Below, piece after piece: positions 72-5,153 of a stretch of DNA of 5,153 nt. Both the position numbers and the translations under genes were made by a program. The stretch lies in the IMG/VR virus record IMGVR_UViG_2740892271_000002, one strand, 5' to 3'. How positions within the stretch are numbered: the stretch's first letter is position 1; the number at the start of each line of letters is the position of its first letter. The notes below the pieces were generated by a model that saw only the letters and a list, made by a program, of their open reading frames with translations, did not search any database and was not told where the DNA came from. The DNA is from a virus (taxonomy: Duplodnaviria > Heunggongvirae > Uroviricota > Caudoviricetes).

Positions 72-1319
72 TTAACTGATCGGCATTACACCACCGGGAC
101 GCGGATTCATATCTTCCAGGTCGCGGCAGTCATTGGAAGAGTAAATTCCCCAGTTGATCCCGGTGGCGTAGGCTTCAAAACGGGACTTCATATCCCCGCG
201 CAGTAACGCCCCGGCGTTAAATTTGGCGTAATAAACGCCCTGCTTACTTTTTCGTACCAGTCCGGTGTTGATCCGCTGTTCGATGCGGGTCAGATACGGC
301 ACCAGTGAATAGTTGATAAATCCCAGCCCCAGCTCTTCGATATTGTTGAAGGTGGCGCGATCGGTGTTCTGCACCATGTGCAACGGCACCCGGAACAGAC
401 GACAGATTTCTTCCAGCTGAAACTTGCGGGTTTCCAGGAACTGACTGTCCTCGGCGTTCAGCGCCATCGACTTCCAGTCCAGCCCCATTTCCAGAATCAT
501 CGGGCGGTGAGCATTGCCAAGCCCCGTGTGACACTCCTCAAAATCTTTCTTCAGACGCTCGTAAGCATCCGGCGTGAGCTTTTGTTCCGTACGCAACACA
601 CCGGATGTCACCGCACCATTACTAAACAACCTGGCACCGTGCTCCTCGGTTGCCGCTGCCAGTGAAATGGCCTCACGCGCATACGCAATGGGATTCAGCC
701 CGACAAGTCCATCCAGCGTCAGGGTGCGCACATGCCAGATTTCATTCTGGGTCAACACATCCACGGAACCATCCGGAAACGTCACCTGATAAACCGGCTG
801 CCACTGGCTGTTCAGCTTCGGTTCCACACAGCCCGGATCTATCGGAAGAAGCTCCACCACTTCTCCCAGTGCCTTTACCTTGTAGGCGTAAAAATTCCCC
901 CGTAGACACAGGCAGACAATAACCAGCTCCCAGAATTCCTGCGGTGTCATGTAGCCATTAGGTTTTGCCGAAACCAACTTATGCAGTCGTTCATCCACCG
1001 CCCGTGTTTTCAGGGTACCGCTGATTTTGTAGAGACTGCAGGGCAGCATACCAACAGACTCTGCCAGCACCCTGACGCAAGAATAGACCGCCGTCAGGCG
1101 CATGGCCCGCTGGCTACTGATCCGCTTTCCGGTATAGGTGTCGTATGACAGCCCGATAGCATCAGCAGTTCTGCTGGCGTGGTCACCGGCACATCGCTTT
1201 TTCGTTGAAATAATCCCGAAAAGAACACTATTTACCTCCGCCGACAGACTGCCGTGTACGGTCGAGATATCGCGCCACCAGCCACGACCAGAACAGGCAC
1301 AGCGCCCCGGCAACAACAA
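72..1319 (-). CDS. Phage portal protein, HK97 family
   Basis: 415-aa ORF directly downstream of terminase large subunit. Sequence has the character of HK97-family portals (e.g. [19 protein letters not shown] near the N-terminus). The 5' end is uncertain: the most upstream start is a TTG triplet (1319/1316/1313) with no Shine-Dalgarno, and the first in-frame ATG is at 1103. Confidence 0.85.
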
Positions 1320-1410
1320 AACCCGCCGGGGGATAAATCAGCCAGGCACCATACGCCAGCAAAAGCGCACCCAGCACGCCCACCAGAGGCGCGAGAATCA
1401 GCATGATCAT
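1228..1410 (-). CDS. Hypothetical small membrane protein (60 aa, two predicted transmembrane helices)
   Basis: ATG at 1410 preceded by GAGGT with 5-nt spacer, 11 nt after the terminase large subunit stop. Codon usage is CTG/GCG/GGC-rich, typical of enterobacterial coding sequence. Two hydrophobic segments separated by YPPAG, with a basic C-terminus. Overlaps the 5' end of the portal ORF in another frame. Confidence 0.5.
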
Positions 1411-1421
1411 AATTACCTCAG

Positions 1422-3155
1422 TTAAAGCGAGCGGATCCCGTAGGACTCAATGTGGTCAGACAGCGTGTCTTCTTTCTCGTACAGCATGGCTCTGCCAACC
1501 GCCATAATCAGCGCAACTGCACCATCGATTTTGTTTTCCGCCTGCTCTTTGACGGGTTTCACCACATCATCGTTACCCGGCATGTTTTTGCCGACCACGT
1601 TGCCGATACACCAGGTCATGATGGGATTGCCGTCATGATGAAAACGTCCCGATTCAATCGCTGCTTCCAGCTCTTTCATCGGATCGGACATATTGGTGAA
1701 GTTCTGGACGATAGTGACGGGATTCAGGTCTTCATCAGCAAGGTCATGTGACAACCCGGTCGCCCCGAAGGGGTCGATGGGTGACTCACTGACCGGGCTG
1801 ATTTTGTTCGCCGCTTTGGCCTCCTCGAGGATGTAGCGATAATCCACCTCCGCACCATCGGTAACGGTCAGAACGCCCATTTCCACCCATTTCTGAAAGC
1901 GTTCGGCTGTCCGTCGATCTTCATTTTTCTCGACGCTGTACACCGTGTCATACGGTACCCAGAAACGCGGGGCCACACTGTAGTAATGCGTTTTACCGTC
2001 AATCTCGCGGGTATAAAGTCGCGCCATGCTGTTCATATCCAGCTTACGCGCCAGGTCAAAGGCCAGAATGCACGGCTGCCCCTCGAACTGCTCAAGGGTC
2101 AGTGATTTATCCTCGCAGCTCTGCCAGCTCACCAAGTTGAAATACGCCGAACGCGCCGACACCCAGATATTGAGGTGTTTTGTTTTAAAGACGTTTGCCA
2201 GACGGGCGTTATTTTTCGCACGCTGCTGCTGACTTAACAAAAATTCGCGATAAACCGACACGCCAATATTTGGATTGGCTTTTTCCAGCACCTGCGGGCC
2301 GGTCCAGTCGTCACCTTCATCAACGGTATAGATGATCCCGAACAGTTCATCGTTAGGCACCGAGCCGTTGAGCATCTCGATGACTTCCCGCCGCTTGTCG
2401 TAGCACGGCCCCTCAATGTTGTACCCGGCGGTGGTGATGGCCCACATCAGTGGCTGACGTCGCGCCCCCATCCCGGTAAGCATTGTGGTATAAAGCGCAT
2501 CGGTGGCATGCTCGTGATATTCATCAACCACGGCACAGTGGGGTGATGAACCATCACCTGGGTTGCCGATCAGCGGTTCAAACCGCGCGCCATCCTCCGG
2601 ACGGTTCATGTTTGAGGCGTTAACCTCAATCCCGAACGCTTCCGTCAGCATGGGTGTGCGTTTACACATCAGTCGCGCCGGGCGAAAGACTTCCCACGCC
2701 TGTTTCTCTGTCGTGGCACCGGAATACACTTCCGCGCCAAACTCGTTATCACAGGCAAAACAATACAGGGCAACACCGGCAGAGATTGCTGATTTGCCGT
2801 TCTTACGGGGGATTTCGGTGTACACCTCCCGGAAGCGGCGCAACCGGGTGCCTTTATTGACCCAGCCAAACGCACAGCAGATCACAAATAGCTGCCACGG
2901 CTCCAGCGTGATGGGCATCCGTTTGAATGCCCACTCCCCCTTGGTGTGCGGCAACAGCTGAATAAATTTCGCGGCCCGTTCAGCCAGGTCCTTGTCGAAG
3001 CGGTAACGAAACGACTTACTTTTTTCCGCCATCAGGTCATCAAGATGGCGCTGGCAGGCCTGAATCACAAACTGGCAGGCAACAATCTTTCCGCGCACGA
3101 CATCCCGGGCATACTGATTTGCAGCATTTACGTTGGGGTAAGATTTCCGGCTCAT
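1422..3155 (-). CDS. Phage terminase large subunit
   Basis: 577-aa ORF. N-terminal region ([23 protein letters not shown]) and a P-loop-like motif (PRKNGKS) are typical of HK97-type large terminases. Its ATG (3155-3153) overlaps the TerS stop as ATGA, indicating translational coupling. Confidence 0.92.
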
Positions 3156-3646
3156 GATTCGATAATTTTCAGAAACGGGTTAGTGGCTTTCTTCTGCCCC
3201 GCCAGGCCAATCAGACGCTGGCGGCTGCTGGGGTCGAGTCCGAGCATTGCCCCCGTGCTGCTCATCTCGGACTCCTGTTCTTTTTTGGCGGTCAGCTCCG
3301 GATTTTTGACCCTGCCGCCCATTGCACCGGTGATGGTGTTGCCCTGTATGGCAATATTTTTCACGGCACGTCGCCAGAACTCATAGGCCACGCACCACCG
3401 CTCAAGTACCGCCAGGTCAGTCACGCACAGCAGGCCCTGACCGCAGAGTTCTTTGGTTGTCAGTTGCCACATGATCGTGGCGAGAGGGAGATCTTCTTCA
3501 GCGAACCACTCTGGTGGCTCAACACCTTTGATGGGCGTAAAAACAGGTTCATCTTTGTTCAGGGCTCGCTTGCCGGGGTTTCCGGCCAGCGCCTTGCGCG
3601 CCGTTGGCTTGGGGCGACGCCCGGAACGCCCCGCCGTTCCAGCCAT
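3152..3646 (-). CDS. Phage terminase small subunit, P27 family
   Basis: N-terminus [34 protein letters not shown] matches the conserved P27-family TerS signature. ATG at 3646 is preceded by AGGAG with an 8-nt spacer. The track's upstream start at 3655 is a GTG overlapping that AGGAG, so 3646 is preferred. Confidence 0.9.
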
Positions 3647-3767
3647 ATGCGGCACTCCTGGTTAAATTTCATTTTTCGCGGGTATAAAAAAACGATGGGG
3701 CGGGCAGTCCGGAAGACGTCAGGTCACAGGGATTTGCCCCGCCCCTCCCTACAAGTGAGAATAATTA
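3647..3767. other. Structured GC-rich intergenic region between HNH and TerS; candidate cos/packaging site (alternatively a terminator-like element)
   Basis: Imperfect inverted repeat ggggcgggca (3697-3706) / tgccccgcccc (3735-3745) flanking a 28-nt spacer that contains the palindromes tccgga and gacgtc. A 7-nt A-run lies at 3685-3691. In HK97-like phages the cos site sits between the HNH gene and the TerS gene. Confidence 0.3.
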
Positions 3768-4118
3768 TCACCGGATTCGTTCGCGCGCTGTTTTCGCTTT
3801 ATGGCAGGGCCAGCACAGACTCTGCAGGTTGCTGTCTGCGTCTGTTCCGCCATGCGCTTTCGGGATGATGTGGTCGACGGTTTTCGCCTCGCTCACCACA
3901 CCGACACGCAGACACAACTGACACAGACCTTTATCGCGCTTCAGAATACGGGCACGAATCACCGTCCATTTTGAGCCATAGCCACGCTGGTGGCGGCTCA
4001 GTCCGCGCTGGTGCTGCACCCAGCCTTCACCGCGATGTTTATCGCAGTAACCCGAACTGTCTGTGGTTGTACCTGCACATCCACGCTTACGGCAGGCACG
4101 TGGGATTAGTGATGGCAT
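3768..4118 (-). CDS. HNH endonuclease (packaging-associated)
   Basis: 116-aa ORF with CQLC ... DHIIP ... SNLQSLCWPCH motifs (HNH/zinc-finger core) plus an N-terminal Cys cluster (CRKRGC...GYCDKH). ATG at 4118 preceded by GAGGT. Position immediately upstream of TerS/TerL is the conserved HNH-terminase arrangement. Confidence 0.9.
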   Translation of the reverse strand: MPSLIPRACRKRGCAGTTTDSSGYCDKHRGEGWVQHQRGLSRHQRGYGSKWTVIRARILKRDKGLCQLCLRVGVVSEAKTVDHIIPKAHGGTDADSNLQSLCWPCHKAKTARERIR

Positions 4119-4160
4119 AAATACCTCATACCCTGCGAAATGTTTACCACGATAAAAAGG

Positions 4161-4417
4161 CTACTTAATGCACTGAGTGCGGATATACTCCTGTGCCCCT
4201 TCCAGTTGCATCTGCATCGTCATCAGCCGCTCTCTGAGGGTGAAATAATCCCGTTCAGCGGTGTCTGCCAGTCGGGGGCTGGTTGCATTATCCACGCCGG
4301 AGGCGGTGGTGGCTTCACGCACTGACTGACAGACTGCTTTGATGTGCAACCGACGACGACCAGCGGCAACATCAGCGCGCAGAGTTTCATTTTCAGCTTT
4401 CGCATCAGCTAACTCCT
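4161..4417 (-). CDS. Rz: Rz i-spanin, C-terminal part (5' end lost in the N-run)
   Basis: The 84 visible residues (ELADAKAEN...RRRLHIKAVCQSVREATTASGVDNA...ERDYFTLRERL...) closely match the C-terminal half of lambda Rz as recalled. Stop codon at 4161-4163. Confidence 0.85.
4223..4405 (-). CDS. Rz1: Rz1 o-spanin outer-membrane lipoprotein, nested within Rz in another frame
   Basis: 60 aa, MRKLKMKLCALMLPLVVVGC TSKQSVSQCVKPPPPPAWIMQPAPDWQTPLNGIISPSESG: signal peptide with lipobox (VVGC) and a proline-rich mature region, nearly identical to lambda Rz1 as recalled. ATG at 4405 preceded by AGGAG. Confidence 0.85.
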   Translation of the reverse strand: MRKLKMKLCALMLPLVVVGCTSKQSVSQCVKPPPPPAWIMQPAPDWQTPLNGIISPSESG

Positions 4418-4642
4418 NNNNNNNNNNNNNNNNNNNNNNNNNNNNNNNNNNNNNNNNNNNNNNNNNNNNNNNNNNNNNNNNNNNNNNNNNNNNNNNNNNN
4501 NNNNNNNNNNNNNNNNNNNNNNNNNNNNNNNNNNNNNNNNNNNNNNNNNNNNNNNNNNNNNNNNNNNNNNNNNNNNNNNNNNNNNNNNNNNNNNNNNNNN
4601 NNNNNNNNNNNNNNNNNNNNNNNNNNNNNNNNNNNNNNNNNN
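4418..4642. other. Run of 225 N (assembly gap or masked sequence)
   Basis: Directly visible in the sequence. Interrupts the endolysin and Rz coding regions. Confidence 0.99.
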
Positions 4643-4928
4643 CCGGTATATCGACTTTGATGTACGGGTTAATTTGTCTGGCGACAGTGGCAAGGTCTTT
4701 ATTCAGGAGGGCTTTGCATTCTGCTTCGGTATACGTTTTACCGAGCATGATGTCTTTTCCGGTGTGTCCGTGACATACAGTCCATACACCAATGATATCT
4801 TTGTATGGTATGTAGCTGACACCTTCCAGACCATCGTTACCACCTGGGCCAGTGATTAACACAGATGCTATAGCAACAGCCCCACCACCAATAGCAGCTG
4901 CAACAGCCTTGCGTAATGATGGCGACAT
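4643..4928 (-). CDS. R: SAR endolysin (T4-lysozyme-like muramidase), N-terminal part (3' end lost in the N-run)
   Basis: N-terminus [57 protein letters not shown] has a Gly/Ala-rich signal-anchor-release domain followed by the E...D...T catalytic arrangement of phage 21 R-type lysozymes. Its ATG overlaps the holin stop as TAATG and is preceded by GAGG. Confidence 0.9.
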
Positions 4929-5143
4929 TATTCACCTCTCGCAGCCTTACGCTTGTCTTCTCTTATTTTGAAATACAGATTTGTCAGATAAGTCAGAAGC
5001 CCCAGAAGCAGACTTCCCAGCACACCAATCGCAGCCCACTGTGATGGACTGACCTGATCCAACCACTGCAAAAACCAGTAGCCGGCACTGCCGGCGGAGG
5101 TGCCGTAGGCAATGCCTGTTGATATTTTTTCCATCTGATACAT
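4928..5143 (-). CDS. S: Class II holin (pinholin, phage 21 S-like) with dual-start motif
   Basis: 71 aa, [71 protein letters not shown]: two transmembrane segments, the first Gly/Ala-rich (SAR-like), with a basic C-terminus. Two in-frame ATGs at codons 1 and 4 (5143 and 5134). Confidence 0.9.
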
Positions 5144-5153
5144 ATCCCGCCCC

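Follow-up and report, generated by a model that had tools for sequence, protein, structure and literature searches.

A probable cos site of the SfV/SfI/phiP27 type between the HNH and TerS genes of a phage with an HK97-like packaging module

The 121-nt gap at 3647-3767 between the HNH endonuclease gene and the TerS gene of this phage DNA raises the question of what it is for. A preliminary description of the 5,153-nt stretch analysed here, called the window, had proposed a cos or packaging site, with a minus-strand terminator or attenuator after the HNH gene as the alternative. The gap was therefore compared with the mapped, annotated or deposited genome ends of related phages, and the alternatives were weighed against an alignment of relatives.

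Genes and repeats around the HNH-TerS gap

All genes of the window lie on the minus strand, in the order holin, endolysin, Rz/Rz1, HNH, gap, TerS, TerL and portal:

5143..4928, minus: holin, class II
below 4928 to about 4161, minus: endolysin and Rz/Rz1, broken by a run of N at 4418-4642
3768..4118, minus: HNH endonuclease (Pfam HNH PF01844, E 1.6e-16; phrog_144, E 1.5e-42)
3152..3646, minus: TerS of the P27 family (TIGR01558, E 3.3e-20; Pfam Terminase_4)
1422..3155, minus: TerL, HK97-type (Pfam TerL_ATPase and TerL_nuclease)
1228..1410, minus: membrane protein of 60 aa (phrog_502, E 2.8e-28)
below about 1319, minus: portal, HK97 family (TIGR01537)

The order HNH, gap, TerS, TerL that had been proposed is thus borne out by the open reading frames and their family assignments, and all four packaging genes (HNH, P27-family TerS, TerL and HK97-family portal) match membership of the HK97 type. 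The HNH protein is 34% identical to HK97 gp74 (E 2e-10) and TerL is 26% identical to HK97 gp2 over 522 aa (E 8e-31). Judged by its sequence, the HNH gene is that of a gp74-like packaging accessory nuclease, placed directly upstream of cos; the gp74 HNH protein of HK97 is described as stimulating terminase cleavage (PMC11331095, PMC9410871). BLASTP found no similarity between the TerS of the window and HK97 gp1, which has no Pfam Terminase_4 match, and a search for solved structures of this TerS returned none. Many SfV-like prophages, on the other side, carry a TerS 99-100% identical to that of the window. The gap ends at the HNH stop codon (3768-3770) on one side and at the TerS start on the other, which in relatives is the ATG at 3646, preceded by AGGAG at 3655-3659, and not the GTG at 3655.

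Several observations concern the remainder of the window. The 60-aa hydrophobic reading frame belongs to a phrog_502 family of the moron/auxiliary category, has no Pfam match, and is oddly placed between TerL and the portal gene. The 225-N run hides the 3' part of the endolysin gene and the start of Rz, and the reading frames called across it are artefacts of the mask. No near-identical full-length copy of 3100-4400 was found in the complete genomes of E. coli, where the best matches have 90-93% identity and fall into two pieces with bor/iss inserted. The holin begins with MYQME, its second Met being codon 4, and matches the family of the S holin of phage 21 (Pfam PF04971), for which an antiholin and a holin are both annotated in the phage 21 record.

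Within the gap, the repeat arms, the 28-nt spacer, the short palindromes and the A-run of the preliminary description were all located where it had placed them:

3697-3706, plus-strand letters: repeat arm 1, ggggcgggca
3735-3745, plus-strand letters: repeat arm 2, tgccccgcccc
3707-3734: 28-nt spacer between the arms, holding tccgga (3708-3713) and gacgtc (3715-3720)
3686-3692, plus: run of seven A, which is a T7 tract on the minus strand

A repeat search gave a perfect 8-nt inverted repeat, GGGGCGGG/CCCGCCCC, with arms 33 nt apart. When the 121-nt region was shuffled 2000 times with its dinucleotides preserved, 9.7% of the shuffles contained a perfect inverted repeat of at least 8 nt, and the RNA fold of the gap region had a z value of -1.21, 24 of 200 shuffles folding equally well. 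The 8-mer GGGGCGGG is present in three copies in the window against 0.29 expected, a number reached by none of 200 shuffles. The statistics of the inverted repeat are modest, and the repeat alone is unremarkable.

The third copy of GGGGCGGG (5146-5153, minus) does lie upstream of the holin gene, as had been pointed out, at -10..-3 of the holin ATG. This is the ribosome-binding position, and the copy there is unrelated to cos. A 98.6% identical E. coli locus (L150, 840-913) has a terminator-like hairpin, ggccatcagag...ctgatggccttttttc, followed by ...gtcggggggcgggatATG, upstream of the holin gene.

The cohesive-end sequence and its relatives

On the minus strand, positions 3706..3697 read TGCCCGCCCC, which is the reverse complement of repeat arm 1. 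In phage SfI, both ends of virion DNA were read by run-off sequencing, and set against the prophage the reads left a 10-nt gap, 5'-TGCCCGCCCC-3', from which cos packaging was concluded (PMC3636060). The SfI record has the same TGCCCGCCCC as its last ten bases and restarts at GTCGTTTTTTTATACCCGCG. Positions are numbered below from the top-strand cut, so that +n is window position 3697-n and -n is window position 3696+n. In this numbering the window and SfI agree at every base between -33 and -1 and again from +2 onward into the TerS gene; downstream of the cut they differ only at +1.

A megablast search of phage records with window 3560-3860 as the query gave matches to SfV and SfIV (each 100% on the TerS side) and to SfI, SfII, ST64B and phiP27. 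The match to phiP27 covers the HNH side at about 90% identity, and the phiP27 record carries an annotated cos-site feature, CGCCCGCCCC, with which the window 10-mer aligns in register. The 10-mer also aligns with the right-end 3' extension CGCCCGCTTC of phiE125 and phi644-2 and with the HK97 end CGCCGCCAAA. The alignment to cos regions of HK97-like phages that had been suggested as a check was run, and no gaps were needed to align the junctions of HK97, phiE125, phiP27, SfI and the window across the record ends. The proposal of a cos site between HNH and TerS in an HK97-like module is upheld by this agreement: the sequence is that of the mapped SfI end, and phiP27, HK97 and phiE125 lie in register with it. 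The window further has what is common to the cos subgroup of SfV, SfI, phiP27 and phiE125, namely a gap between HNH and TerS-TerL on one strand, a cohesive end mapped on virions of a member, and flanks in register with the genome ends of the members. From sequence comparison we put at about 0.92 the probability that the gap is the cos of a temperate phage of the SfV/SfI/SfIV/phiP27 type with an HK97-like packaging module. The cos element as such is already known, being mapped in SfI and annotated in phiP27.

SfI, SfII, SfIV and SfV have been described as having a common cos site (PMC3851460), and the cos mechanism of SfV was termed "postulated" in the SfI paper (PMC3636060). The published ends within this group are not fully concordant, because the SfV record (NC_003444) starts at window position 3713, which puts its first base 7 nt ahead of the SfI-mapped 10-mer, and the SfIV record does likewise; the SfI record starts at window position 3696. 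The SfI, HK97 and phiE125 records break directly after the 10-mer. The SfV and SfIV record starts are probably not the true end.

A mosaic joint was observed at the site. On the HNH side (3674-3860) the window has about 90% identity to phiP27 and has diverged from SfV, whereas the TerS side (3560-3713) is 100% identical to SfV and SfIV, and the TerS of phiP27 is only 48% identical. The point of exchange falls inside the conserved cos core.

The polarity of the overhang was taken from the better characterized members. HK97 DNA has 10-nt 3' overhangs (PMC9410871), and phi644-2 and phiE125 have ten-base 3' extensions, 5'-CGCCCGCTTC-3' on the right end (PMC2920897), which fall at the position homologous to the window 10-mer. 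The gap, rather than an overlap, between the SfI run-off reads from the two ends is what 3' overhangs would be expected to leave. Because of these three cases the expected product in the window is a 10-nt 3' overhang, and 3' polarity would hold for the SfV/SfI group by homology to HK97 and phiE125 together with the SfI run-off gap. From the length of the overhang, the bottom-strand cut would lie between 3706 and 3707. In the mechanism that we propose, TerS would bind the block ACCCGCGAAAAATGAAATTTAA at +14..+35, as its conservation suggests. By homology to HK97, the TerL nuclease, stimulated by HNH, would nick the strands 10 nt apart around TGCCCGCCCC, at 3697/3696 on the top strand and 3706/3707 on the bottom strand, to give 10-nt 3' overhangs. 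Packaging of the concatemer would start from the TerS side and end at the next cos, and the G-rich region upstream of the cut might act at termination, possibly, as a speculation, like lambda cosQ.

Blocks in fixed register and readings of the inverted repeat

Relatives were collected from 62 loci in bacterial genomes (Enterobacterales, Gilliamella, Comamonas, Acidovorax and others) with TerS 30-99% identical to that of the window, and from 80 near-identical viral contigs. An anchored ungapped alignment and a MAFFT alignment of about 40-60 relatives plus HK97, phiE125 and phiP27 agreed with each other. The 62 genome loci have the same blocks in the same register, apart from a 1-nt shift of the block register in a few betaproteobacterial loci. 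The blocks in the window are as follows:

-53..-42 (3738..3749, minus): G-rich box (G-box) GGGAGGGGCGGG, corresponding to the second repeat arm of the preliminary description
-41..-35 (3731..3737, minus): GCAAATC, family word (T/G)CAAATC
-34..-15 (3711..3730, minus): variable spacer of constant length, holding gacgtc and part of tccgga
-14..-11 (3707..3710, minus): conserved GGAC 5' of the cohesive end
-10..-1 (3697..3706, minus): cohesive end 5'-TGCCCGCCCC-3', corresponding to the first repeat arm
+5..+11 (3686..3692, minus): T7 tract
+14..+35 (3662..3683, minus): ACCCGCGAAAAATGAAATTTAA, the most conserved block of the region

The G-box has high information content at a fixed position in about 60 relatives including HK97 and phiE125. 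The word (T/G)CAAATC starts exactly 41 nt before the end in HK97, SfI, phiP27 and the window, and phiE125 has GAAAAAG there. Around the cut, GGAC(C/T)GCC (-14..-7, 3710..3703) is nearly invariant in the family alignment, while the 3' half of the 10-mer (-6..-1, 3702..3697) is variable, so that 17 different 10-mers occur among the relatives. The TTTTT at +7..+11 is highly conserved. The palindromes tccgga and gacgtc, which are present in the window, sit in the variable spacer when relatives are compared and do not stand as a conserved signal.

The inverted repeat, one part of the site as first described, does not come out as the functional unit. The helix of the window (8 + 2 pairs) has 69.5% of its cells paired in 38 distinct relatives, and column shuffles gave a mean of 69.5 +/- 1.0, with 279 of 500 at least as high and no excess covariation; RNAalifold predicted no pairs on the relatives. 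In some relatives the G-box is changed to GGGGGAGG and the other arm has no compensating change, most relatives have only 3-6 complementary bases, and the complementarity between 10-mer and G-box is missing from HK97 and from many relatives. Since pairing equals that of the shuffles, GGGGGAGG is uncompensated and HK97 lacks complementarity, the repeat mainly reflects a G-rich box lying opposite a C-rich cohesive end and is not a selected hairpin.

The same comparison bears on the possibility that GGGGCGGG...CCCGCCCC followed by U7 forms a hairpin in late mRNA and serves as a terminator or attenuator after HNH. Such a hairpin could coexist with cos, the minimum free energy fold does pair both arms, and the U7 run follows. 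Lambdoid late transcripts cross cos under Q antitermination, and a terminator at cos would for that reason be tolerated. However, the terminator scan did not call the site, which has a loop of about 28-33 nt and four nucleotides (AUCG) between the stem and U7, and neither the short loop with an immediately following U tract nor the stem kept in relatives that mark a Rho-independent terminator was found. The fold energy is ordinary for the composition, and the region has no Rfam match. With pairing at the shuffled level, an empty RNAalifold result and a non-complementary HK97 site, the terminator reading has no comparative support. The T tract, moreover, is conserved everywhere, also in members without hairpin complementarity, and its role would for this reason lie at the DNA level. 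A terminator or attenuator here thus seems quite unlikely, and as the main function of the gap it was rejected. Very unlikely, in our judgement, is that the symmetry itself is the signal, as a site for a dimeric protein or a cruciform recognised by the terminase. The perfect 8-nt repeat of the window would suit such a site, as would the excess of in-register pairing (69.5%) over slid registers (49-57%), but the in-register value is inflated, since the tested structure was taken from the window. Another pair of complementary 8-mers, TAGGGGGG/CCCCCCTA, occurs in Gilliamella loci. When G-boxes and cos ends were exchanged among 41 relatives, mean complementarity was slightly lower, 5.30 +/- 0.12 against 5.54 observed, a value as high being found in 3% of permutations with relatedness uncorrected. 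Against this stand the frequency of such repeats in shuffled sequence and the few complementary bases of most relatives given above, the position of the cut inside one arm and not at the centre of symmetry, and a G-box that stays constant against the 17 different 10-mers. The symmetric-site or cruciform reading was rejected, the complementarity being mostly an effect of composition.

A further alternative accepts the site as a cos but takes it for a remnant, left unused in a prophage that is defective or packages by headful. The N run masks part of the lysis region, so that the integrity of the prophage cannot be read there. Contrary to this alternative, the HNH, TerS, TerL and portal reading frames are intact with full-length family matches, and the critical cos bases are identical to those of the functional phages SfV, SfIV and SfI. 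Moreover, SfI (PMC3636060) and SfIV (PMC3851460) have been reported as cos and not headful packagers. An unused remnant is, on these grounds, very unlikely, and the reading as a cos of the SfV/SfI/phiP27 type is retained.

With this cos reading, the TerS-side block can be compared with the site known from HK97. The minimal HK97 TerS site is at +15..+29 and consists of CCCG and an A/T tract, of which one G and the adjacent A-tract are read (PMC11331095); on the HK97 record it is CTAACCCGATTTTTT. The window has CCCG at +15..+18 and then A5 at +21..+25. The block ACCCGCGAAAAATGAAATTTAA is predicted to be the TerS recognition site, cosB-like in kind; the use of the HK97 position is an analogy, because the TerS of the window has no pairwise similarity to gp1. 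Phages with a TerS 48-50% identical to that of the window (phiP27, phiE125) keep the block, and another sequence takes its place where TerS identity is 25-27% or TerS is unrelated.

A scan of viral contigs with the 14-mer GGGGGGATCAAATC gave at least 120 stretches with at least 105 distinct flanks. The matches listed (L156-L274) are mostly cos-like junctions: a strict pattern search for G/A-N-AC(C/T)G near the expected distance picks out 48 flanks among them, and about 20 more are of the HK97 type (TGACCGCCGCCAAA|GTTTGA), which this pattern misses. At least four classes of downstream block can be told apart, that of the window, that of HK97, AGGTAGATTTTTGCGCGTGAGAAATAA and CCTTTTTTCACACCGCCGCAGGTTAGAAAAC. 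Identities to the window proteins are:

same class (phiP27, phiE125): TerS 48-50%
third class (L159): TerS 25%, TerL 54%
fourth class (L206): TerS 27%, TerL 39%, HNH 69%
HK97: TerS none detectable, TerL 26%, HNH 34%

Across the classes, TerL (26-54% identity) and HNH (34-69%) stay homologous. From these class identities, the downstream block changes with TerS, and the G-box and cut core follow TerL and HNH. The G-box and (T/G)CAAATC at -53..-35 would then be read by TerL, HNH or the portal rather than by TerS. In the available text of HK97 packaging papers (PMC11331095 and PMC9410871 among them) the one site described is that of TerS, downstream of the cut. We tentatively raise the possibility that the G-box with (T/G)CAAATC, 41 nt or about four helical turns upstream of the cut, is an undescribed and widely shared third component of HK97-type cos sites, common to classes that differ in the TerS-side element and read by the TerL/HNH/portal part of the motor. 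It may, for example, work in the manner of cosQ, as a signal by which the motor is halted or positioned when packaging terminates. A large superfamily of HK97-type cos sites appears to be recognisable by the G-box/TCAAATC word.

Another motif was noted beside the blocks. At 3756-3770 (minus) there is a 7-1-7 palindrome, TGATAATTATTCTCA, with one mismatch to the Fur-box core TGATAATnATTATCA. At up to two mismatches this core has one match in the window against 0.01 expected, and one of 200 shuffles has any. Relative to the cut it spans -74..-60, and it shares bases with the HNH stop codon. Palindromes of this kind (10-14 of 14 positions matching) occur at -72..-84 in phiP27, SfV, HK97 and many enterobacterial relatives, and one relative (L096) has a perfect one, TGATAATCATTATCA; among the relatives compared, none was found in Xenorhabdus, Comamonas and phiE125. 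It may be a site for host Fur, another accessory site, or neither.

Significance and comparison with known cos systems

The cos site is real but known, because it carries the same ten bases that were mapped as the SfI cohesive end; with the same sequence mapped in SfI and annotated in phiP27, it says nothing new about packaging. Its use is that it fixes the exact ends of the prophage genome, which is of value for annotation, for predicting transduction and for spotting satellites that copy the site. Only mildly new are the three-block architecture in fixed register and the apparent division of labour between its upstream and downstream parts. The architecture spans phages from enterobacteria to Burkholderia and Comamonas, with a TerS-side block that changes with the type of TerS, and such a comparison could guide mutagenesis in the HK97 in-vitro system.

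The lambda cohesive end quoted in the preliminary description, GGGCGGCGACCT, agrees with the lambda sequence, but the likeness seen there between this end and the G-rich motif is superficial: the shared word is limited to GGGCGG and the flanks are unrelated. In outline the two sites are alike, with staggered nicks at a G/C-rich site, a small-terminase site on the side packaged first and possibly an upstream termination element. They differ in the overhang, which is 12 nt and 5' in lambda and expected to be 10 nt and 3' here, and in the terminase, which in lambda is Nu1/gpA with no HNH. The R-sites and IHF sites of lambda were not found at this locus (the IHF consensus has no match in the window), and the flanks are not collinear; the window thus does not have a lambda-type cos. 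At the left end of lambda (13-43) there are CGCGGGT, the reverse complement of ACCCGCG, and ATGAAAATTTT, words which resemble the window block at 3662-3683 (ACCCGCGAAAAATGAAATTT) in another order and orientation; this may be coincidence.

HK97 shares with the window the G-rich box and TCAAATC 41 nt before the end, the GAC(C/T)GCC core, an HNH gene upstream with TerS and TerL downstream, homologous TerL, HNH and portal proteins, and CCCG with a homopolymer A/T tract downstream of the cut. In contrast, the HK97 10-mer, CGCCGCCAAA, is not complementary to the G-box, and the downstream element CTAACCCGATTTTTT is displaced by 4 nt and has its tract on the opposite strand. No relation between the HK97 TerS and that of the window could be detected, and about 320 nt separate the HK97 HNH gene from the genome end. 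The strict HK97 combination of a gp1-type TerS with the CTAACCCGATTTTTT site at +15..+29 was not found in the window. The Burkholderia phages phiE125, phi644-2 and phi1026b have their extension CGCCCGCTTC at the homologous position, a G-rich box in register, downstream GCCCGCGAAATTAAAAA, a TerS with 50% identity and HNH upstream; they differ in the betaproteobacterial host, in the 3' half of the 10-mer and in AGAAAAAG, which replaces TCAAATC.

The Stx2e phage phiP27 has its site at the same position, with the same G-box, the same 41-nt spacing and the downstream CCCGCGAAA block. It differs in the first base of its 10-mer, C in place of T, in its diverged TerS and in the A/T pattern after CGCGAAA. 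SfI, SfV, SfIV and SfII depart from the window in the HNH side, which in the window follows phiP27 and not SfV, and in the G-box word, TCAAATCT against GCAAATCC in the window; position +1 is A in the window and SfV, and G in SfI. Otherwise these four phages have the same 10-mer, the same order of HNH, cos, TerS and TerL, a TerS 98-100% identical, and a sequence that matches the window exactly over -33..-1 and again from +2 up to and including the TerS start.
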